DNA of 64,000 nt from an uncultured Candidatus Saccharibacteria bacterium (lineage in GTDB: Bacteria; Patescibacteriota; Minisyncoccia; Phycocordibacterales; UBA2100): assembly GCA_964589005.1 (NCBI GenBank), contig CAZPQI010000001.1:67675-131674 (forward strand), in the 5' to 3' direction. Positions 10,790 through 48,295 of the stretch are shown piece after piece; the first letter of the stretch is position 1; the number at the start of each line of letters is the position of its first letter. The position numbers and the translations under genes were made by a program. The notes beneath the pieces are model-generated. The model saw nothing but the letters and a program-made list of their open reading frames with translations, did no database searches and was not told the DNA's origin.

Positions 10790-12313
10790 TTAAATATCAC
10801 TCACTATTTCTATCTGTGCCCCAATATCTGCGAGGCGCTCGGCAATACGCTCGTACCCTCTTTCAATTGAATATACGTTTCGCAATAAAGAAGTTCCCTC
10901 TGCTGCAAGCATGGCAATAAGCACCACCACCGCAGGACGAAGAGCAGGTGGACACACTACCTGTGCAGCTCTAAGTTCTGTTGGTCCTGTTACAAATACG
11001 CGATGTGGATCGGCAAGTTTTACATCCGCTCCCAAACGATTAAGCTCAGTAAAATAAATAGCTCTTCCTTCCCAAGCCCAATCGTGGATTAGAGTAGTGC
11101 CCTTTGCTTGTGTCGCAATAGGAACAAAGAACGGTAAGTTATCAATGTTAAGCCCTGGATACGGTAGCGGATGTATTTTTATGGGAGACGCTTTCAACTC
11201 CGATGGATATATCGTAAGGTCTACAAGTTTCGTTTTTCCGTTTTTGGAAAAATACACTTTACCTTGTTCATACTTTAATCCCATGTATGTAAGCTTAAGT
11301 AACTCGACTTCAAGAAACTCAATGGGGCACCTTTTTATTTGCAGTTCAGACTTCGTTACTGCTGCGGCACTTATAAACATCATCGACTCTATCGGGTCTT
11401 CGCTATTGTAGTGTGTAATTTTTTTGTCTATTTCGTCTACCCCATACACGGTTAGAGTCGTTGTTCCTACCCCATCAATACGTACGCCAAATTGCCGCAA
11501 CAAAAAACAAACGTCTTGTACTTGGTAATTAGGTGGAGCGTACTTTATTACTGTTTTTCCAGGAATCAGCGCCGCTGTCATCAGTGCGTTAATCGCAGCA
11601 GTGTCACTCGCCTCATACATAACAATTTCTGTAGGCTTCAATTTTTTTACTTTAAATGAATAGTGATTTTCGTGGGTTCCTACACGAACACCAAGAGATT
11701 CAAGGGCGTGCTTGTGTGCAGCTATTGTTCTATCACCCATATTACATCCACCAGCGTGTGGAAGCGTAAAATCGCCTTTACGATGCACCATTGCGGGAAT
11801 AAGCATAAGTACCGATCGCATTTTGCTTGCAGCACTTTTGTCTATACTGGAAAGTTTAAAACTTTTCGGGGGGGTGATATGTAATGTGCACTCGTTAAGA
11901 GCATCAACTTGCACGCCAATGCTTTTAAATACCTCAATCAGTCTATGAATTTCTTCTATGCGTGGAATTCCATGTAGCACTGTCGGAGCCTTGTTTAAAA
12001 GAGACGCACACATCAAAGCAAGCGCGCCGTTTTTGGAAGTGTTAGTAACTGCTGTTCCATGTAACTTTTTTCCACCGGTAACTTTAAAGTCTAAACCTTC
12101 TTTTAAACCAACAACTTGATGTTGTAATACATCGCTTATTTTCAATAGTTGTGTTGTAGAAAGGTTCTGGTCACCCTTTTCCATGCGCGCAACTGCCGAC
12201 TGCGAAGTTTGCATTGCTTGTGCAAACGCTTTCTGAGTTAACCCGCGCTTACGACGAAGATCTTTGATAAAAAGTCCAATTTTACGATGTGATTCTGAAG
12301 ACATGGGGTTCAA
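10790..12313 (-). CDS. murA: UDP-N-acetylglucosamine 1-carboxyvinyltransferase with an N-terminal XRE-family HTH domain (fusion)
   Basis: Residues 1-65 form an HTH_XRE domain (LRRKRGLTQKAFAQAMQTSQSAVARMEKG). From about residue 70 the sequence is MurA-like (KVTGGKKLHGTAV...NGALALMCASLL), including the active-site Cys loop HAGGCNMGDR. It is a single uninterrupted ORF. Confidence 0.8.
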   Translation of the reverse strand: MNPMSSESHRKIGLFIKDLRRKRGLTQKAFAQAMQTSQSAVARMEKGDQNLSTTQLLKISDVLQHQVVGLKEGLDFKVTGGKKLHGTAVTNTSKNGALALMCASLLNKAPTVLHGIPRIEEIHRLIEVFKSIGVQVDALNECTLHITPPKSFKLSSIDKSAASKMRSVLMLIPAMVHRKGDFTLPHAGGCNMGDRTIAAHKHALESLGVRVGTHENHYSFKVKKLKPTEIVMYEASDTAAINALMTAALIPGKTVIKYAPPNYQVQDVCFLLRQFGVRIDGVGTTTLTVYGVDEIDKKITHYNSEDPIESMMFISAAAVTKSELQIKRCPIEFLEVELLKLTYMGLKYEQGKVYFSKNGKTKLVDLTIYPSELKASPIKIHPLPYPGLNIDNLPFFVPIATQAKGTTLIHDWAWEGRAIYFTELNRLGADVKLADPHRVFVTGPTELRAAQVVCPPALRPAVVVLIAMLAAEGTSLLRNVYSIERGYERIAERLADIGAQIEIVSDI

Positions 12314-12335
12314 GGGTAATTTCTAATGTAAATAT

Positions 12336-12359
12336 GTTATATCATATATGATATAACAC
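12336..12359. promoter_or_regulatory. 24-bp perfect palindrome tgttatatcatatatgatataaca in the divergent murA/priA promoter region
   Basis: Read from the sequence. It lies 23 bp upstream of the HTH-murA start on the opposite strand. Proposed as an operator candidate. Confidence 0.5.
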
Positions 12360-12366
12360 AAGCACC

Positions 12367-14316
12367 ATGACACCTATGGTATGCTGTGCGCATTGGAGAT
12401 TACCGTCTCCAAAACTCTGTATGTTTATCATCCACGTTACACCAGTTGCCAAAGGAGGCATACATCAACTCTCCTACTTTTCGTCCCAAGAGTTTCCTGT
12501 GGGCACTATTATTCAAGTTCCCTTACGTAAGAAAGAAATCCCCGCATTGGTGCTAGAGCGCGAAGACGCGCGCGCAGTTAAATCAATTTTGCGCACAAAC
12601 GTATACGAAACTCGAAAAGTACGAAAACAAGAAGCCGTGCATATATTTTCTCCTGAGTTTGTAAGAGCAGCACAAACTACTGCGGCGTACTTTGCAACAT
12701 CTGTTGGAAGTATCATTCACAGTTATGTTCCTGCTGCTATTTTAGCTGCTCCGAGTGGAAAAAATTCGCCACAACAAATACCTGGAAAAGATTCCGTACC
12801 ATTTGAAAGATGTGTGCTTCAAGTTCCCCGCCACGCTCGCGTCGAAAAATATAAAGTGCTTATTCGAAACCGATTCGCAAAAGGGGAGTCGGTATTGCTG
12901 TGTGTGTCCACTCTTCGAGAAGCTCGGTTCTTTTACGAGCAATACAGTCGCGGTATTGAAAAATATTCGTTTTTGCTTGAAAGTTCGCAAACTAAGAAGG
13001 TTCAACAAGAAACATGGAATGCGGCTCTTTTGGAAAAACACCCTGTACTGATAGTTGCTACTCCTACGTTTATAAGTATCCCCCGTGGTGATATTTCGCT
13101 TTTTATTTTGGAACACGAGATGTCGTCGGCATATAAACAACAAACGCGACCGCGCGCAGATGCTCGTATAGTAATAGAAAACGTCGCTCGCGAAACTAAC
13201 AGCACCCTACTATACGCCGGAACTACTGTGAGTGTGCGAGTACACAAGTTGCTGCACGATGGTAGTGCACACGAACTCGACGAACAGGTACGCAAGTTAC
13301 GCACCGAAAATACCGTTACCATAGTCGATAGTAAAAAATCTCGTCGCAGCGCACGAGAGGAAAAATTAGATTTCCCCGTGCTCTCTGTACAGTCGCTCTC
13401 TGAGTTGTACGAATGCCAAAAAAAAGGGAGGCTCTCTTTCGTATTCACTGCGCGGCGAGGCATAGCATCACAAACAACGTGCAATGATTGCGACACGACA
13501 ATAAAGTGCGTGCACTGCGAGTCGCCAATGGTACTACACGAAAGCCGCGGGCAGCGCGAATTACTTTGTCATCGTTGTGGAAGCATGCGCGATGCAAACG
13601 AAACGTGTGTCTTGTGCGGTAGTTGGAACTTAGTACCACTTGGTATTGGATCAGAACGAATCGAGCAATTTTTAAAAAAACATCTTCCCGATTCCAAGCT
13701 CTTTGTACTTACCCGCGATACTGCCTCGACACCGACGAAAGCAAAAAAGATAATCGAAGAGTTTTATGCAACCCCTGGAGCAATTCTCATCGGTACAGAA
13801 ATGGCACTCCCGTACCTCACCATTGAAGTTTCGTGCAGTATTATGAGCTCAATAGATTCCTTATTGTGTATTGCCGACTTCCAAATTGAAGAGCGAATTT
13901 TTTCAATCATTGCAATGTTGCGCGAACGAACCAGTACCATTTTACTTATTGAAACTGGATCCCCAGAAAACCCAATGCTCAAACATGCTCAAAATGGTGC
14001 ATTAGCTGAGTACGCAGAAGAAGAACTAAAACTACGCGAACAGCTGCGCTACCCTCCGTATGCTCATATTATAAAAATAACGTATACGGGAACAAAAGAA
14101 GCTGCCATACAAAATATGCAAAAATTTGTGGAATGTACGTACGCAAAATACAAACCACGCGTTTTTTCTGGCTTCATACAAAAAGGTCGCGACGTGCAAC
14201 TCCACGCACTTATACGAATACCAGTGGAGAATTGGCCAGATACAGAACTCGCTGCAATTTTAGAAAATTTACCACTTTCTTTTACTGTTGATGTAAATCC
14301 TGAACGAACTCTTTAA
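12367..14316 (+). CDS. priA: primosomal protein N' (PriA) homolog with degenerate ATPase motifs
   Basis: N-terminal 3'-DNA-binding-like region and a Cys4 zinc-binding insertion (CNDCD...CVHCES...CHRCGS...CVLCGS). Helicase-core colinearity (LLESS..ETW, LIVATPTF) is kept. Where Walker A (GxTGSGKTEVY) should be, the sequence reads QVPRHARVEKY. Where DEEH should be, it reads LEHE. The real start may be at the Met 18 codons downstream. Confidence 0.8.
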   Translation: MTPMVCCAHWRLPSPKLCMFIIHVTPVAKGGIHQLSYFSSQEFPVGTIIQVPLRKKEIPALVLEREDARAVKSILRTNVYETRKVRKQEAVHIFSPEFVRAAQTTAAYFATSVGSIIHSYVPAAILAAPSGKNSPQQIPGKDSVPFERCVLQVPRHARVEKYKVLIRNRFAKGESVLLCVSTLREARFFYEQYSRGIEKYSFLLESSQTKKVQQETWNAALLEKHPVLIVATPTFISIPRGDISLFILEHEMSSAYKQQTRPRADARIVIENVARETNSTLLYAGTTVSVRVHKLLHDGSAHELDEQVRKLRTENTVTIVDSKKSRRSAREEKLDFPVLSVQSLSELYECQKKGRLSFVFTARRGIASQTTCNDCDTTIKCVHCESPMVLHESRGQRELLCHRCGSMRDANETCVLCGSWNLVPLGIGSERIEQFLKKHLPDSKLFVLTRDTASTPTKAKKIIEEFYATPGAILIGTEMALPYLTIEVSCSIMSSIDSLLCIADFQIEERIFSIIAMLRERTSTILLIETGSPENPMLKHAQNGALAEYAEEELKLREQLRYPPYAHIIKITYTGTKEAAIQNMQKFVECTYAKYKPRVFSGFIQKGRDVQLHALIRIPVENWPDTELAAILENLPLSFTVDVNPERTL

Positions 14317-14346: not shown

Positions 14347-14880
14347 ATGCGAAATATCGTACACATAGGCAGCCCCGTACTGCGCAAAATTGCTCACGAG
14401 GTTGCACCTGGTGATATTCAAAGTGCGGAAATTCAGAAAATAATACAAGATATGAAAACTGTTCTTTCGAGCGAGAAATTTGGTGTAGCTATTGCAGCTC
14501 CGCAGATAGGAGAATCTCTGCGAATTTTTGCTGTGGGCGGTCCCGTGTTCGCATCGAGAGAAAAAGTAGATTTTGATCCAAAGTTACACCTTGACCAAAT
14601 ATTTATAAATCCCGAGATTCTTAAGGTTTCTAAAAAAACAAAAATCGGCGACGAAGGATGTCTTTCGATTCCTGGAAAATACGGTTCAAAGGTTCTACGA
14701 AACGAAAAAGTTTCGATTTCGTATTATGATGAATTTGGAATCAAAACCGAGCGTGGCGCGTCTAGTTTTCTTGCTCGAATTTTTCTTCACGAAATTGACC
14801 ATTTAAATGGAATACTGTATGTAGACGAAGCTCTCGAGGTAATCGATGTAGACGACGATCTTAAACCTCTCAAAAAATAA
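14347..14880 (+). CDS. def: peptide deformylase
   Basis: Motifs GVAIAAPQIG, EGCLSIPG and HEIDHLNG. Confidence 0.95.
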   Translation: MRNIVHIGSPVLRKIAHEVAPGDIQSAEIQKIIQDMKTVLSSEKFGVAIAAPQIGESLRIFAVGGPVFASREKVDFDPKLHLDQIFINPEILKVSKKTKIGDEGCLSIPGKYGSKVLRNEKVSISYYDEFGIKTERGASSFLARIFLHEIDHLNGILYVDEALEVIDVDDDLKPLKK

Positions 14881-14889
14881 AATAAGTGT

Positions 14890-15747
14890 ATGCAAAACTC
14901 TGATATCAAATTTGTATTTTTTGGCACACCAGAAATAGCAGCAACTATTTTGGATGAACTCAAGATGAAGGAGTTAACTCCTTCACTAATTGTTACCGCA
15001 CCTGATAGGCCCGCAGGACGCGGAATGAAGCTTACGTCCCCTCCTGTAAAAGTGTGGGCTGATGAAAATAGGATTCCAACCCTGCAACCAGAAAAATTAG
15101 ATGAAGATTTTATTGCGAAACTTAAGGAAGACAAATGGGATTTGTTTGTGGTATTCGCCTTTAGTTCAATTTTAAAGAAAGAAGTGATTGAAATACCCAT
15201 TCACGGAACCATAAACCTCCACCCTTCACTTCTGCCGAAACTTCGTGGACCATCACCGATAGTGAGTGCTATTCTTACCGATGCAAAAACTACTGGAGTA
15301 ACTGTAATTCAAATAGATGAAAAAATGGACCATGGCTCTATTCTTGCCCAAGAAGAAATTACTCCCGAAACATGGCCACTTCCTGTTACAGAATTGGAAG
15401 AAACTCTTATGAAAATAGGAGGAGAGCTACTTGCAGACACTATTCCAAAAATTATTAGTAAAGATGTGGAACCACGCGAGCAAGACCACTCCGATGCGAC
15501 GTTTTGTCATATGTTAAAAAAAGAAGACGGACTAATTGACCTAAACGACGACCCCTACCAAAGTCTGTTGAAAATCAAAGCTTACGCAGGCTGGCCAGGA
15601 ACCTATTTTTATGTGAAGAAAAATGGAAAGGAAATTCGTGTAAAAATAACCGAAGCTCGCCTAAGCAGCGACAAGCGTTTACTTATTGAGCGCGTTGTTC
15701 CCGAAGGTAAAAAAGAAATGTCGTACGTAGATTTTTTAAAGTCTTGA
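14890..15747 (+). CDS. fmt: methionyl-tRNA formyltransferase (short)
   Basis: N-terminal formyltransferase fold (VFFGTPEIAA, HGTINLHPSLLPKLRGPSPI) and a C-terminal Fmt domain. Forms a def-fmt operon. Confidence 0.9.
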   Translation: MQNSDIKFVFFGTPEIAATILDELKMKELTPSLIVTAPDRPAGRGMKLTSPPVKVWADENRIPTLQPEKLDEDFIAKLKEDKWDLFVVFAFSSILKKEVIEIPIHGTINLHPSLLPKLRGPSPIVSAILTDAKTTGVTVIQIDEKMDHGSILAQEEITPETWPLPVTELEETLMKIGGELLADTIPKIISKDVEPREQDHSDATFCHMLKKEDGLIDLNDDPYQSLLKIKAYAGWPGTYFYVKKNGKEIRVKITEARLSSDKRLLIERVVPEGKKEMSYVDFLKS

Positions 15748-16654: not shown

Positions 16655-16774
16655 TACTTTCTATTATATCACGTTGAAAAAACACTTTTCTCGTGTAGAA
16701 TACGGCTCAGTTCTTTCCAAAGTTATATAGATTTTTTCGCTCCGCGGTAGCTCAGTGGTAGAGCAATCGACTGT

Positions 16775-17026
16775 CGAAGGCAGCCTTTGGTAGTAATATC
16801 AAAGTGAAGAACGAGGTGAATTGACTGGAAACCCTAACGTAAAGGCGAGGGCAATCAGCAGCCAAGCTTAATTGAAGGTTCAGAGACTATTCCGAAAGGA
16901 AGTACTATCCATTGTAATTATTTTGCAACTGGACGGGAAGCGCCTCGCATCCTAATCCGATCACGTCAGTGATTTAGGATGGATGATGATATAGTCCACC
17001 CCTTTTGGAAACAATTGGAAAAGGTG
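16775..17026 (+). mobile_element. putative group I intron (approx 252 nt) in the tRNA-Asn anticodon loop
   Basis: The 5' exon ends in U and the intron ends in G. An internal guide GCAG can pair with exon CUGU to form P1. GGAAACCCUAACG, CCAAGCUU and AGAGACUA match elements I recall from small bacterial tRNA group I introns of the Azoarcus tRNA-Ile / cyanobacterial tRNA-Leu type. A GACGGG...AUAGUCC P7-like pairing is present. The size fits that class. Confidence 0.6.
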
Positions 17027-17046
17027 TAATCGATTGGCCATAGGTT

Positions 17047-17064
17047 CGAATCCTATCCGCGGAG
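17047..17064 (+). repeat. direct repeat copy A (tRNA 3' end gaatcctatccgcggagc)
   Basis: An identical 18-mer recurs at 17445-17462. The pair flank the HNH ORF. Confidence 0.75.
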
Positions 17065-17102
17065 CGAAGTAATCTATACTTAAAGAGTGGTAGACTTAAT
17101 AG

Positions 17103-17435
17103 ATGTCTACCACTAAGAAACGAAAAGAAAAACGTACGTACGCCGATCGTCGTGAGTACATGATAAAGGCAGTCGCTAAACGACGCAGAAAGTTACGAAC
17201 TATGGCTTTAGAGCATGGAGGTGGTAAGTGTACGATTTGTGGGTATAAGAAATGCACTAGAGCGCTCACTTTTCATCACCTGGATCCATCTAAGAAAAAG
17301 TTCGGATTATCTGCCAGAGGGATAACTCGCTCATGGGAAAAAACTAAAGCAGAGTTAGAAAAATGTGTTTTGCTATGTATGAACTGCCACATGGAAATAC
17401 ATGATGGAGTTACTAAAGTTCCAAAGAAAAGGTAA
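17103..17435 (+). CDS. HNH endonuclease
   Basis: 110 aa with CxxC...HHLDP...N...CxxCH, a His-Me finger. Lies immediately 3' of the intron-containing tRNA, bracketed by duplicated tRNA 3'-end sequence. Confidence 0.8.
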   Translation: MSTTKKRKEKRTYADRREYMIKAVAKRRRKLRTMALEHGGGKCTICGYKKCTRALTFHHLDPSKKKFGLSARGITRSWEKTKAELEKCVLLCMNCHMEIHDGVTKVPKKR

Positions 17436-17444
17436 TTTTACGTT

Positions 17445-17462
17445 GAATCCTATCCGCGGAGC
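17445..17462 (+). repeat. direct repeat copy B (partial tRNA 3' end)
   Basis: gaatcctatccgcggagc preceded by gtt. One base of the tRNA T-loop (c) is missing. Looks like an att-site-style duplication. Confidence 0.75.
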
Positions 17463-24333: not shown

Positions 24334-24383
24334 AATGAAGAATCTTAGACTCAAAGTGCTATACTAAACGAACAATTGAATAA

Positions 24384-24526
24384 ATTATCAAGAAAGATGT
24401 GAAGGGACTAGCCTTATGACCATCTTAGCAACCTGTCTCTTCGTCCAGATAAGGTGCTCCATCTAGCCTGTATAGGAAAGATAACAATGCATCAGCATCT
24501 TACCCTTCACAGGAAAGATGTTTTTT
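24384..24526 (+). promoter_or_regulatory. SAM-I (S-box) riboswitch with terminator in the metK leader
   Basis: UUAUCAAGAAAGAUGUGAAGGGACUAGCC...GCAACC...AGAUAAGGUGCUCC...AUCUAGCC...GGAAAGAUAA matches the SAM-I consensus blocks (YUCUUAUCAAGAG..GGAGGGACUGGCC...GCAACC...AAGGUGCUAA..CCAGC..GAUAAGA). It is followed by the hairpin catctt...aagatg plus TTTTTT just before the metK start. Confidence 0.8.
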
Positions 24527-24539
24527 AGTGTTAAAAGAT

Positions 24540-25478
24540 ATGAAGAAAACAGCAGAATTCGTAAGTCCAAAGCATCCAGATAAAATATGCGACTATATAG
24601 CGGATATTATATTAGATGCTTACTTGGGTGATGATAAAGATAGCAGAGTGGCCATCGAGGTTATGGGTGGCCACAATCTTGTTACCGTAAACGGAGAAGT
24701 AACGAGCAAGACAACCATAGATATTGAGGGGCTTATAAAAAACATAGTAGGCTCAGATTACAAAGTGATATCTAATGTCGTAGCACAAAGTAGCGAAATA
24801 GCGCGCGGTGTAGACACTGGAGGTGCAGGTGACCAAGGAATAATGAAGGGTTACGCAACAAGCGAGACAGAAAGCCTAATGCCATTAGAGTACGAACTTG
24901 CTCGAAACTTATGTATGAAAATTTTTGAGGTTTATCCTTATGACGGCAAGACTCAAATTACAATCGATGGAGAAAAAGTTACGTCGGTAATTGCTAGTTT
25001 TCAAAATTCTAAAAGTGATGAGCTGTTATCATTAGTAAAAAGTATTATTCAGTCCGAAGAGTACTTCATAAACCAATCAGGAGAGTGGTCGCAAGGTGGA
25101 TTTGATGCAGATACTGGGCTCTCGGGACGAAAACTTATTGTAGATAATTATGGCCCTGAAGTGACCATAGGAGGTGGCTCCTTTTCTGGAAAAGATTACA
25201 CAAAAGTGGACCGCTCGGGAGCATATATGGCTCGAAAAATATCTGTTGACTACCTAAAGAAGCGCTCAGCCAAGGAAGTACATACGAAGTTAGCATATGC
25301 GATAGGAAAACCTGAACCAGTTATGGCAACTGCTATTATAGACGGAAAAGAAATTCCAATAGAGGGGTACAATTTAACACCTGCTGGGATAAGGAAATTA
25401 CTGAAACTAGATAAGCTAAAGTTGTCGACAACCTCTAACTGGGGCCATTTTGGTAGAGGTTTTGAATGGGACGTTTAG
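24540..25478 (+). CDS. metK: S-adenosylmethionine synthetase (compact)
   Basis: Motifs KHPDKICDYIAD, GAGDQG and GGGSFSGKD. The first ATG lies 4 codons inside the tracked ORF, which is GTG-initiated. Confidence 0.93.
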   Translation: MKKTAEFVSPKHPDKICDYIADIILDAYLGDDKDSRVAIEVMGGHNLVTVNGEVTSKTTIDIEGLIKNIVGSDYKVISNVVAQSSEIARGVDTGGAGDQGIMKGYATSETESLMPLEYELARNLCMKIFEVYPYDGKTQITIDGEKVTSVIASFQNSKSDELLSLVKSIIQSEEYFINQSGEWSQGGFDADTGLSGRKLIVDNYGPEVTIGGGSFSGKDYTKVDRSGAYMARKISVDYLKKRSAKEVHTKLAYAIGKPEPVMATAIIDGKEIPIEGYNLTPAGIRKLLKLDKLKLSTTSNWGHFGRGFEWDV

Positions 25479-45783: not shown

Positions 45784-46791
45784 CTACGTATTTAAATGCT
45801 GAGAAAAAGGGTGTATGCATTCTTTTAACTCATAAGCATCCCCATGTCCTAGTAAACCTAAGTACGATTGCAAAGTCTCTTGCTTTCCATCAGTTTCAGC
45901 AACCCTCTTTAACATCCTGCGTTTTGTTACACTGCGTAGCACACGATGGTTAGGAAAATGTACCCAACCTAAAAAATCTATCCCAGAAGCAAGTGTCTCA
46001 ACAGAAGTCTTTCGTTGATGTAATTCGAGCTGTAGTTTAACTTGTAAAAACCTTTCGATATATCGAAAGGTTTTTACAGGAACATTCCTATCGTGTGAAA
46101 GAAACATGAAATCGTCAGCATAACGAATATAGTATTTTGCTTTCAGTTTGTGCTTAACAAACTGGTCAAACTCATTCATATATATATTAACAAAAAGTTG
46201 CGAAGTGAGGTTACCAAGCGGTAATCCTTTTCCTTTCACCCCGGAGTTGAAGCTCCCCATAATTTCTGCCAAAAGTGCAATACTATCTTTGTCAGCGATA
46301 TGTTTCTTCAAAATATCCATTAAGATACTATGGTCAATAGAGGCAAAGAACTTTCGTATGTCGCTTTTAAATACCCATACTGTTTTCGTGTTGTTTTTGG
46401 AAACTTTGTTTGAAAAACTACGAAAACGATTCACCGCTTTGTGTGTTCCCTTATTACTTCTACAAGAATATGAGTCAGCGATGAACGTGTTGTCAAAATA
46501 TGGATAGAGTTGTCTATATAATGCGTGGTGAAGCAAGCGATCACGGACACTTGCCTTGTGAATATTTCTTGGCTTCGGGTCGGAAATATTAAAGGCTTCG
46601 TATTTGCCATGCTTGTATATTTTGTTTTTTAAATCTTGGTGTAATGAAAGTATGTTATCCATTAGATGTAATTGGAATTCCTGCACATCTTTTCGTTTTC
46701 TTTTACCATTGAGAAATTCCTTCCACGCACCAAGAAGATTTTCTACTGAGATGATATCATTGTATGTATGAGAAAATCTCAACATCAGCAT
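45784..46791 (-). CDS. reverse transcriptase, DGR-type
   Basis: YIRYADDFMF is the YADD catalytic motif. GLPLGNLTSQLFVNIYMNEFD carries the DGR-specific [I/L]GxxxSQ motif 4. The N-terminus is FENLLGAWKEFLNGKRKRKDV. No maturase/X or En domain, 336 aa. The start is at ATG (MLMLRF); the tracked ORF uses an upstream TTG through a G10 run. Confidence 0.9.
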   Translation of the reverse strand: MLMLRFSHTYNDIISVENLLGAWKEFLNGKRKRKDVQEFQLHLMDNILSLHQDLKNKIYKHGKYEAFNISDPKPRNIHKASVRDRLLHHALYRQLYPYFDNTFIADSYSCRSNKGTHKAVNRFRSFSNKVSKNNTKTVWVFKSDIRKFFASIDHSILMDILKKHIADKDSIALLAEIMGSFNSGVKGKGLPLGNLTSQLFVNIYMNEFDQFVKHKLKAKYYIRYADDFMFLSHDRNVPVKTFRYIERFLQVKLQLELHQRKTSVETLASGIDFLGWVHFPNHRVLRSVTKRRMLKRVAETDGKQETLQSYLGLLGHGDAYELKECIHPFSQHLNT

Positions 46792-46798
46792 AATACTA

Positions 46799-46808
46799 CC
46801 CCCCCCCC
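46799..46808. repeat. C10/G10 homopolymer in the 35-bp gap between the RT and avd start codons
   Basis: Read from the sequence. This is the only long G/C homopolymer noticed in the window. Confidence 0.8.
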
Positions 46809-46826
46809 GCAACTACTCAACCTAAG

Positions 46827-47180
46827 TTGATACCAGTGGTTTTAAGATTGAAGGATGTGTACGGTATATGGCAAGCATATCTTATACACTTCCCGAAACA
46901 AAATCGCTATACTCTTGGCTCAAAAATTGACGAAGTATTCTTGCTCGCTATAGAATATTGTTTCCTAGCTAGTTACGCCCCAAAAGATACTAAAATTATT
47001 CACCTCAACCGCTGTATATCGCGAGTTGACCTTCTTAAGTTACTTTTACAATTATCTTGGGAAATACAAGCACTGGACACTAAAAAATATACGGTACTTA
47101 GTGAACAACTACAGGAAGTAGGCAGAATGCTTGGCGGGTGGAGAAAGGGGTTGGAAGTTAAAAACTCCCCACAAAAGTGA
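46827..47180 (+). CDS. avd: Avd-like accessory variability determinant (four-helix-bundle, 23S rRNA-IVS protein family)
   Basis: 117 aa. YGIWQAYLIHFPKQNRYTLG..., the central LLKLLLQLSWEI, and the C-terminal EVGRMLGGWRKG line up with Bordetella bAvd (EVGRILGSWIARVNRKG). Initiates at TTG. It is encoded on the strand opposite to the RT, TR and target. Confidence 0.7.
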   Translation: MIPVVLRLKDVYGIWQAYLIHFPKQNRYTLGSKIDEVFLLAIEYCFLASYAPKDTKIIHLNRCISRVDLLKLLLQLSWEIQALDTKKYTVLSEQLQEVGRMLGGWRKGLEVKNSPQK

Positions 47181-47193
47181 GGAGAAAATGATG

Positions 47194-47309
47194 TGTTGCT
47201 TGACCACCAAGCGATGGCGAGAGTCCGCATTCCAGACGTTGTCATTGTCAAAGCGGTTCACGTTGACCTTGAGCTTACCAGCATTCACATTGACGTTAGC
47301 GACAAACAG
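47194..47309 (-). repeat. DGR template repeat (TR)
   Basis: The minus-strand reading frame is LFVANVNVNAGKLKVNVNRFDNDNVWNADSRHRLVVKQ, with 8 AAC/AAT codons. It is 100% identical to the VR except at 10 adenines. Confidence 0.85.
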
Positions 47310-47638
47310 AGACGATATGTGAAGTGTGCCATCCATACCACCAACATTTGATAGCGAATTAACAAATATTTGTATTTTATGCGAGACCTAAAAGTCTTCA
47401 GAGAACACCTCACCAACAAACTATTTTTTTAAAAGAAATAACGTAACCATGCTCCAATCAGTCGTAACTTTATGAACTCTAAACTACGTCTTCCTACACA
47501 CAAACTTCCAAAGCCGTGACCGTTGAAATATTATCTGTGGCTTCCTTAGTATACAAAAGAAATCCCTCGGGCGCCCATAAAAAATGAGAGCGTCCGAGGG
47601 ACTAAGGTTCAAAGGGTCAAAGACCAAAGTGCAAAGAA

Positions 47639-48295
47639 TCAAACAGTCTGTTGCTTGACCACCAAGCGATGGCGAGAGTCCGCACGCCAGACGTAGCCAT
47701 AGTCAAAGCGGTCCACGTAGACCTTGAGCTTACCAGCACTCACATCGACGTAAGCGACAAACAGTTCATCATTTACTTCAAACAAAAAGAAGGTGCCATA
47801 TCCTTCTTGCCGGAGCAAGTCGCGATGCGAGCGGCAAAACTCTTTTATCTGTCCCTGGGTGAGACAGAACTTGTGTGGGTCGCCGAGTGAGCTAAACAGC
47901 GTTTGATAGTTACCGTCGTGTGTCATTTCGTACACGTCAACGGCTGTTTTTTCGGTGTCTTCGCCGGGGACGTTCGTGCTCCAGTTTTTGAAGTCACTGT
48001 CAACCCATCCGTTGAAGACGTCGTTGGCTTTAGCGAGTGTGACCGCGCCCTTCGCGAAAGCGATGGTGGTACTTTCAAGATAATGGAGGTAATCGTTGTC
48101 CTTGGTAGGGGCGATGGCCTCTAAAAATGCCTCGATACCACATTCCATTGCTTCGGCTCCAGCCTGAGTGCCAAGACGATGAATCGCCTCATCACTTATT
48201 CCGTGTTCACGGAGTCCGTTGATAACCCCACCTGCAAACTGAACGAGCCAACCTGCACCAGAGATAATCTCGTGTGGTTTATTTTTGCTAGACAT
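47639..48295 (-). CDS. DGR target protein (218 aa) with C-terminal variable region
   Basis: No signal peptide (MSSKNKPHEIISGAG...). The last 41 residues (LFVAYVDVSAGKLKVYVDRFDYGYVWRADSRHRLVVKQQTV) are encoded by the VR. Confidence 0.8.
   Translation of the reverse strand: MSSKNKPHEIISGAGWLVQFAGGVINGLREHGISDEAIHRLGTQAGAEAMECGIEAFLEAIAPTKDNDYLHYLESTTIAFAKGAVTLAKANDVFNGWVDSDFKNWSTNVPGEDTEKTAVDVYEMTHDGNYQTLFSSLGDPHKFCLTQGQIKEFCRSHRDLLRQEGYGTFFLFEVNDELFVAYVDVSAGKLKVYVDRFDYGYVWRADSRHRLVVKQQTV
47649..47764 (-). repeat. DGR variable repeat (VR)
   Basis: Aligned to the TR, the substitutions are N>Y, N>D, N>S, N>Y, N>D, N>Y, D>G, N>Y and N>R (the last being 2 nt). Every changed nucleotide is A in the TR. 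Confidence 0.85.

Follow-up and report, generated by a model that had tools for sequence, protein, structure and literature searches.

A PriA ortholog predicted to lack the helicase motor in Paceibacteria-type Patescibacteria

Introduction

In nearly all bacteria, replication restart is initiated by PriA. A 2017 review describes its helicase activity as conserved 'except in Deinococcus'. The PriA of Deinococcus radiodurans carries a natural arginine at the Walker lysine and has neither ATPase nor unwinding activity (PMC4504706, Lopper et al. 2015); it does bind single-stranded DNA (ssDNA), with a Kd of 215 nM, and forks, with a Kd of 108 nM, and also interacts with DnaB (PMC4504706). In Escherichia coli, the priA300 mutation (K230R) eliminates ATPase, helicase and translocase activity and leaves primosome assembly in vitro and near-normal growth in place (PMC5778457), helicase activity being needed only for the PriA–PriC route and some special substrates (PMC5778457). 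In the literature searched, we found no description of (i) a motor-less PriA in Patescibacteria, the candidate phyla radiation (CPR) or Parcubacteria or (ii) motif degeneracy in actinobacterial PriA. Here, we analyze the priA gene in a 64,000-nt stretch of contig CAZPQI010000001.1 (assembly GCA_964589005.1, positions 67,675 to 131,674; hereafter, the window), titled 'uncultured Candidatus Saccharibacteria bacterium', and compare the encoded protein, in which the ATP-contacting elements are predicted to be gone, with these described systems.

Results

Identity of the window protein as PriA

Homologs cover 97% of the open reading frame (ORF) and all converge on MFI(I/V)HVTP, and the first 18 codons (12367..12420) are conserved in no homolog, the N-terminal extensions of the homologs being mutually unrelated in sequence. 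Therefore, we consider the ATG at 12421 to be the most likely translation start and codons 12367..12420 to be probably untranslated. Residues of the window PriA are numbered from this ATG; coordinates of all domains and motifs are given in Table 1.

Sequence profiles and fold comparison identify the same family. The best NCBIfam model is the priA equivalog TIGR00595 (E 7.7e-62, 209.5 bits, below its cutoff of 230.35), followed by nine PRK05580 sub-models; for comparison, Bacillus PriA reaches 776 bits on TIGR00595 and the related protein P0068, a member of the same clade as the window protein, reaches 239.0 bits, so that the clade straddles the cutoff. Close relatives are labelled 'hypothetical protein' by NCBI. 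A phmmer search of PDB sequences returned only the PriA proteins of Klebsiella pneumoniae and E. coli, with E ~1e-30 (1.6e-30). We obtained an AlphaFold2 model from 79 homologs, with a mean predicted local distance difference test score (pLDDT) of 89.5 and a predicted template modelling (TM) score of 0.89. In a Foldseek comparison of this model with the PDB, the top nine matches are all PriA chains (E 1e-27 to 4e-39; best 8fak_H, E 3.7e-39, TM 0.76), and the next matches, which comprise Mfd, DbpA, RecG and other superfamily 2 (SF2) helicases, follow at E ~1e-9 and TM ~0.35. Two RecA-like SF2 lobes are predicted to be present by the same comparison.

The accessory domains of PriA are found in their usual order, with one domain missing. 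The 3′-end DNA-binding domain (3′BD) matches PF17764 just below threshold (E 1.9e-4, 21.7 bits, cutoff 22.7), and matches to this family are precomputed for most homologs. Relative to the pocket residues described for the 3′BD of E. coli PriA (PMC5778457), the equivalent of Tyr18 (Y19) is invariant, a basic residue occupies the Lys61 position and Asp17 is replaced by Ser. The winged-helix domain is missing between the 3′BD and the helicase core. It is replaced by a linker of ~24+17 residues, compared with 61-116+37-42 residues in seven canonical PriAs, and this linker has the lowest pLDDT, the highest entropy and the highest ratio of nonsynonymous to synonymous substitution rates (dN/dS) in the window PriA. 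The AlphaFold2 model superimposes on the E. coli PriA structure without winged helix (delta-WH, 6dcr) with TM 0.76/0.76, equal from both sides. All eight cysteines of the Cys-rich region align to E. coli C436...C479 and are conserved in 138-147 of 147 representatives; the region is a complete PriA two-zinc module, for which zinc binding is predicted. The protein ends in a conserved D-V-(D/N)-P motif (DVNPERTL in the window protein, DVDPIEG in E. coli), and PF18074 is found in two homologs.

Gene order agrees with this assignment. Among 80 related loci, def lies directly 3′ of priA in 55 of 75 informative cases and fmt lies downstream of priA in 61; a murA homolog is located upstream in 68 of 69. 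The order murA-priA-def-fmt is thus kept in the clade, and its priA-def-fmt part is the Bacillus order, as annotated in Bacillus velezensis, with priA-fmt in Listeria. Since the priA-def-fmt order is common to the clade and Bacillus, the window gene is a positional ortholog of priA and no stray SF2 protein. We conclude that it is the PriA ortholog of this organism.

Motif by motif comparison with canonical PriA

We used seven PriAs from six phyla (E. coli, Sinorhizobium, Parabacteroides, Listeria, Bacillus, Acaryochloris, Fusobacterium) as the canonical reference. All seven keep LxxEQ, G(V/I)T(G/S)SGKTE, VPE, DEEH, GSATP, (R/K)(R/K)G, GTQ..KG and QVxGRAGR, with VSATP in place of GSATP in Sinorhizobium.

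At the Walker A site, both HMMER (phmmer) and MAFFT align QVPRHARVEKY (12820..12852) to GVTGSGKTEVY of E. coli PriA without gaps. All three glycines are lost, Lys230 is replaced by Arg140 and Thr231 by Val. A search of the entire window protein with the expression G-x(1-4)-GK[ST] gave zero matches. G-x-GK[ST] strings do occur in three relatives, inside the next helix (~residues 151-162) in L003 and P0131 and at ~590 in the C-terminal domain in L049, and we attribute these to chance. A P-loop requires six to eight residues. DSSP analysis of the AlphaFold2 model places strand beta-1 at residues 129-134 and the following helix from residue 137, which would leave a loop of two residues at the P-loop site.

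The remaining ATP-contacting motifs are degenerate to different degrees. In Walker B, the window protein has Glu for the metal-binding Asp, so that an acidic residue stays at this site, and His for the catalytic Glu; across the clade, the catalytic position varies (K, R, H, N), with Glu in 10 of 147 representatives. Two clade members, P0134 and P0139, have a near-canonical Walker B (DEES and EEEN, respectively) beside a fully degenerate Walker A; members of this kind may represent less derived states and be useful for ordering the losses. The Q-like LxxEQ segment is absent from the window PriA and its relatives, motif III is lost, and the segment in place of motif VI lacks the arginine fingers.

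Other parts of the core are kept. These include motif IV, the G, T and M of motif V, YK after motif II (YKQQ), G-x-G after the zinc region, DFR..E and YPP. The Pro of motif Ia is kept in most of the clade and is Ser in the window protein. The loop following motif II, which in E. coli PriA forms crosslinks with the fork junction and provides the coupling between DNA binding and ATP hydrolysis (PMC5175346), is partly kept, with RP[FY][ILV]DxR in the clade and RPRADAR in the window protein compared with xPRYHAR in canonical PriAs. Taken motif by motif, the alignments predict that the ATP-contacting elements are gone and the nucleic-acid-contacting elements are largely kept, the division of SF2 motifs into these two groups being established helicase knowledge.

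These results refine an initial annotation of the gene, which had described a PriA homolog retaining the PriA domain order and zinc region, with QVPRHARVEKY at the position of GxTGSGKTEVY. Both statements are borne out, the former by the TIGR00595, phmmer and Foldseek matches and the latter by the two ungapped alignments. The motif DEEH is degenerate as stated there; its register is shifted by one residue, DEEH aligning to EHEM and not to LEHE. The 'Cys4 insertion' is indeed conserved and in fact consists of four CxxC pairs with eight cysteines. The flanking helicase blocks had been considered conserved, which holds for motif IV, the GT-M of motif V, YKQQ and YPP and fails for the Q-like segment and motifs III and VI. 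The same annotation had suggested a profile alignment, a survey of sibling genomes and a structure prediction as checks: HMMER and MAFFT agree on the motif positions, the same degeneracy recurs in the 120 clusters, 80 loci and 147 representatives described below, and the P-loop site is shortened to a two-residue loop in the model. It had also named a shifted register, with an intact GKT elsewhere in the protein, as the result that would overturn it; the concordant alignments and the lack of any G-x-GK[ST] in the protein rule this out.

Distribution and selection

We assembled relatives as the best 80-150 matches per search. All sets were filled by the clade itself, the 150th representative still scoring 698 bits. 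The 80 GTDB loci were obtained by a genome scan with a clade-specific peptide pattern (LxGTEM..Y), which is blind to canonical PriAs. A P-loop is lacking in (i) 120 of 120 best protein clusters at 90% identity, (ii) 80 of 80 GTDB species-representative loci and (iii) 147 of 147 additional representatives of 50%-identity clusters, so that the motor-less state is common to ~350 related sequences, all with intact reading frame and full length. The replacement residues are themselves strongly conserved: position 140 is Arg in 80 of 81 species-level and 146 of 147 representative sequences, Q134 is present in 81 of 81 species-level sequences and E460 in 80 of 80, one incomplete sequence being gapped at this position. 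Named relatives are Kaiser-, Taylor-, Lloyd- and Yonathbacteria, Paceibacterota, the Parcubacteria group and Minisyncoccia (Paceibacteria-type), and the nearest relative among the matches listed is a metagenome-assembled genome (MAG) of Paceibacterota, with 74% identity. The degenerate PriA is a lineage-wide trait and not the oddity of a single genome.

Many third-party co-assembly MAGs with a Paceibacteria-type PriA (L001, L007-L010 and others) bear the title 'uncultured Candidatus Saccharibacteria bacterium'. This title is probably a generic or mis-mapped name rather than evidence of the trait in Saccharibacteria; the taxonomic placement given here is based on relatives named independently, every one of which is Paceibacteria-type.

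Selection was quantified by the Nei-Gojobori method (NG86). The eight most similar pairs gave dN/dS of 0.010-0.038 at dS ~0.13-1.7. For ten pooled pairs, the former P-loop with its helix gave dN/dS of 0.035 and the lowest entropy of any segment; the zinc region gave 0.038, and the linker replacing the winged helix is relaxed (0.33). The window PriA and its clade are under strong purifying selection, the former P-loop included. From the dN/dS and entropy of this segment, it follows that the old ATP cleft has been rebuilt and fixed and is not drifting.

Proposed function and alternative explanations

We consider it likely that the window protein is a PriA ortholog turned pseudohelicase, which would serve as an ATP-independent scaffold for fork recognition and primosome assembly. 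The PriA body plan is kept, with the 3′BD, the two RecA-like lobes, the two-zinc Cys-rich region and the C-terminal domain (CTD). Missing from it are the winged-helix domain, the Q-like segment, Walker A, motif III, the Walker B catalytic Glu and the motif VI arginine fingers. Abandoned forks and D-loops would be recognized through the 3′BD, where the stacking Tyr and the basic residue of the 3′-end pocket would hold the nascent 3′ end; the DNA-contacting parts of the core, namely motifs Ia, IV and V together with the loop after motif II, would add to binding and hold the template DNA. Neither translocation nor unwinding would take place. The Cys-rich region and CTD would form a docking platform that recruits the replicative helicase directly or via SSB, upon which the replisome would be rebuilt. 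The absence of ATPase activity, the scaffold role and the persistence of DNA binding are inferred. For the scaffold, the models are the K230R form of E. coli PriA and the D. radiodurans protein; binding of ssDNA and forks, together with interaction with DnaB, is predicted from the retention of the 3′BD, motifs Ia, IV and V and the Cys-rich region. An ATPase-dead PriA kept for DNA or protein binding, as the initial annotation had predicted, is thus supported by homology, motif loss, the ~350 sequences and selection, and stays a prediction from sequence. The 'altered restart mechanism' that it had deduced is overstated; a motor is dispensable for primosome assembly, as K230R and the D. radiodurans protein show, and the window PriA would use the helicase-independent subset of the known mechanism.

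Two alternatives assign a ligand to the old cleft. It is very unlikely that the window PriA is still an ATPase or helicase with a non-canonical site, in which, for example, Arg140 takes the place of the Walker lysine. Arg140, [D/E]231 and E233 are almost invariant, as expected for a cleft that is not decaying, and E. coli PriA has, according to a review, a second, unlocated weak nucleotide site; however, all P-loop glycines are gone, the helix of the model extends over the loop, both the Q-like segment and the motif VI arginine fingers are deleted and K, R, H and N all occur at the catalytic-Glu position. K230R alone, moreover, abolishes the ATPase of E. coli PriA (PMC5778457), and the Arg-bearing PriA of D. 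radiodurans has no measurable ATPase (PMC4504706). Binding of a nucleotide or another phosphate ligand without hydrolysis, the old cleft acting as a regulatory switch, would account for selection on the former P-loop as strong as that on the zinc region and for the invariance of charged residues which, in canonical SF2 geometry, border the cleft. We regard this as unlikely, since the glycine-rich loop, the adenine-recognition (Q-like) element and the arginine fingers are all gone and the conservation is equally explained by a network of inter-lobe salt bridges that stabilizes the fold.

The other two alternatives concern the status of the gene. A neofunctionalized paralog with a job outside restart, next to a canonical PriA elsewhere in the genome that performs restart, is quite unlikely. 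Only 64 kb of the genome are visible and the pattern used for the genome scan cannot detect canonical PriAs, but the window gene holds the ancestral priA-def-fmt position, all non-catalytic PriA domains are kept in order and the window contains no second match; the replicons of relatives are small (617 and 644 kb for chromosome-level records), and small genomes seldom keep paralogs. The TIGR00595 score below the cutoff (209.5 vs 230.35) and the NCBI name 'hypothetical protein' of close relatives would be compatible with a decaying pseudogene or with a sequencing or assembly artefact. To this explanation we give practically no weight; it is ruled out by an intact, full-length frame in ~350 independent assemblies, dN/dS of 0.01-0.04 and a confident model.

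Several points weigh against the pseudohelicase interpretation itself. Loss of the ATPase is a prediction from motifs for the window protein and for all clade members, and the predicted loss of the phosphate-binding pocket is based on the sequence and a DSSP string and not on coordinates. The recruitment of partners (DnaB, a loader or SSB) would follow by analogy. No other PriA-like sequence was found within the 64-kb window, the rest of the genome being outside that search. Finally, Q134, R140, E233, D267 and E460 are conserved beyond the needs of a passive scaffold, which hints at an additional role of the former ATP cleft. Extending the pseudohelicase interpretation, we tentatively put forward a broader proposal, which is possible and more doubtful than probable: a large Paceibacteria radiation (at least Kaiser-, Taylor-, Lloyd- and Yonathbacteria, >150 clusters at 50% identity) would restart replication with a motor-less PriA, in which the cleft would have been rebuilt as a conserved charged site (Q134, R140, [D/E]231, E233, D267, E460) that locks the two lobes in a single conformation or binds a new ligand or partner.

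Gene neighbourhood and other elements in the window

Beyond this locus, the window carries housekeeping genes of a bacterium with a small genome (holB, mreB, frr, hpf, typA, hisS, dnaG, rpoD), at a GC content of ~0.40; rpoB and rpoC are probable further members, judged from size and position only. The MurA protein (EPSP_synthase fold) encoded divergently from priA carries an N-terminal helix-turn-helix (HTH) domain of the Cro/C1 type (HTH_3, 1.3e-11), which was seen in the window copy. A perfect 24-bp palindrome, TGTTATATCATATATGATATAACA, lies at 12335..12358 in the divergent murA/priA intergenic region and is a candidate operator for the HTH domain fused to MurA or a candidate shared promoter element.

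Table 1 Coordinates of the priA gene, its domains and motifs, and further features of the window
Feature	Position	Strand	Description
HTH-fused murA	10790..12313	-	Divergent from priA
priA ORF	12367..14316	+	649 aa, stop included in coordinates
Likely PriA coding sequence	12421..14313	+	631 aa
3′BD, residues ~1-110	12421..12750	+	PF17764 and E. coli alignment
Variable linker replacing winged-helix domain and LxxEQ (Q-like) segment	12751..12804	+	Alignment
Former Walker A / P-loop, Q134-V-P-R-H-A-R140-V	12820..12843	+	Aligned to E. coli G224-V-T-G-S-G-K230-T
Former Walker B, E231-H-E-M	13111..13122	+	Aligned to E. coli D320-E-E-H323; clade [DE]-x-E-x
Post-motif-II loop (equivalent of the aromatic-rich loop, ARL)	13132..13170	+	YKQQTRPRADARI
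Former motif III, AGTTV	13216..13230	+	Clade G-D-L-L-L vs canonical GSATP
Motif IV, retained, ARRGIA	13450..13467	+	R345 and G347 invariant; R346 nearly invariant
Cys-rich region, four CxxC pairs	13477..13626	+	C354/357, C363/366, C383/386, C396/399; PF18319 E 0.0014
Motif V remnant, IGTEM	13789..13803	+	G, T, M kept; canonical Gln replaced by invariant Glu; following KG lost
Former motif VI, MLRERTST	13915..13938	+	Replaces QVxGRAGR, 3-5-residue deletion, its size varying with the alignment; arginine fingers lost
C-terminal domain	14056..14313	+	E. coli C-terminus alignment; pLDDT >88
def (peptide deformylase)	14347..14880	+	Pfam PF01327, 5.9e-41; downstream of priA
fmt (Met-tRNA formyltransferase)	14890..15747	+	Pfam PF00551/PF02911; downstream of def
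Retroelement reverse transcriptase ORF	45784..46812	-	RVT_1, 1.3e-22
Retroelement template repeat, 116 nt	47194..47309	-	
Retroelement variable repeat	47649..47764	-	3′ end of target ORF 47639..48295

Several elements unrelated to priA were recorded. A tRNA gene at 16739..17066 (+), which ARAGORN missed in the genomic sequence, is interrupted within its anticodon loop by an intron of group I (Rfam RF00028, 77.9 bits, 16725..17018). When its exons are joined in silico by the U/G splice rules, the product is either tRNA-Thr(UGU) or tRNA-Asn(GUU), according to the splice point chosen. The final 18 nt of this tRNA (17048..17065) are repeated exactly 397 bp downstream (17445..17462), with 0 such repeats expected by chance, and the two copies flank a small ORF (17104..17436, +) that appears HNH-like by eye. 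A low-GC (0.33-0.36) island of defence type follows at ~17.8-24.3 kb and encodes an HTH-Panacea antitoxin, GmrSD-HNH, an EcoRI-family methylase, DUF2779 and HNH; together, the tRNA repeat and the island look like the result of tRNA-targeted integration. A SAM riboswitch (RF00162, 49.7 bits) at 24382..24487 (+) is located directly upstream of a gene for a short (316 aa) S-adenosylmethionine synthetase (24528..25478, +). Finally, a diversity-generating retroelement spans 45784..48295 (-), and at all 10 mismatches between its two repeats, the template repeat has A and the variable repeat a different base.

Discussion

If the pseudohelicase interpretation holds, genome-reduced Patescibacteria contain, after Deinococcus, a second lineage of motor-less PriA, which is far larger, more radically stripped and under strong purifying selection. 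Under the broader proposal on the Paceibacteria radiation, and counted with Deinococcota and Actinomycetota, motor-less PriA would have arisen at least three times, and textbooks, which have the helicase motifs conserved in all but Deinococcus, would need revision. As a naturally minimal form of PriA (631 aa, without winged helix and, by prediction, without ATP site), the protein raises the question of which parts suffice for fork recognition and helicase reloading. There is also a consequence for annotation: clade members above the TIGR00595 cutoff, such as P0068, can receive the name 'replication restart helicase PriA', though they are very unlikely to be helicases, and the window protein and its nearest relatives, which score below the cutoff, are called hypothetical.

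With canonical PriA (4NL4, 6DGD, 8FAK; TIGR00595), the window protein shares the domain order, the fold (TM 0.76), the zinc region, motif IV, the C-terminal packing motif and the priA-def-fmt gene order; in contrast to canonical PriA, it is without the ATP-binding motifs and the winged-helix domain. The motor-dead E. coli variants K230R (priA300) and K230A/D are the closest laboratory parallels, K230R having the same Arg at the Walker lysine as the window PriA. K230R is, however, a single-residue laboratory mutant of a complete helicase that depends on PriB because the PriA–PriC route requires helicase activity, whereas the window PriA is natural and multiply degenerate.

Among natural proteins, the actinobacterial PriAs (NCBIfam PRK14873) have likewise lost the motor motifs and the winged helix and kept RRG and the eight cysteines. 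The PriA of Tsukamurella tyrosinosolvens (WP_068739079.1; L088:1937-3928, NZ_LR134460.1) has neither of the Walker motifs, none of motifs III, V and VI and no winged helix, and keeps RRG and the eight cysteines. Yet its replacement residues differ from those of the window PriA, which keeps the GT-M of motif V that Tsukamurella has lost. The window protein scores 81.7 bits on the best PRK14873 model (NF011453, cutoff 812), compared with 209.5 bits on TIGR00595; Tsukamurella PriA reaches 913.9 bits on the PRK14873 model NF011454. These scores rule out membership of the window PriA in the PRK14873 family, and because of them we regard its degeneration as separate from the actinobacterial one. An 8-mer shared with Tsukamurella PriA, PRHARVEK, lies at non-homologous sites (the Walker A site in one protein and the end of the 3′BD in the other; BLAST E 0.14) and is judged a chance match.

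The PriA pseudohelicase of Deinococcus-Thermus shows the same Lys-to-Arg replacement, degenerate motifs I and II and a retained gene, and provides the functional model that we adopt for the window PriA. This likeness is drawn from the published description and not from a sequence alignment, and says nothing on common descent. The window PriA differs in that it belongs to another phylum, is also without the Q-like segment, motifs III and VI and the winged helix, and is short (631 aa). Loss of the motor in PriA thus looks recurrent, and the window PriA is an unusually extreme case of the already known motor-less PriA and not a new mechanism.

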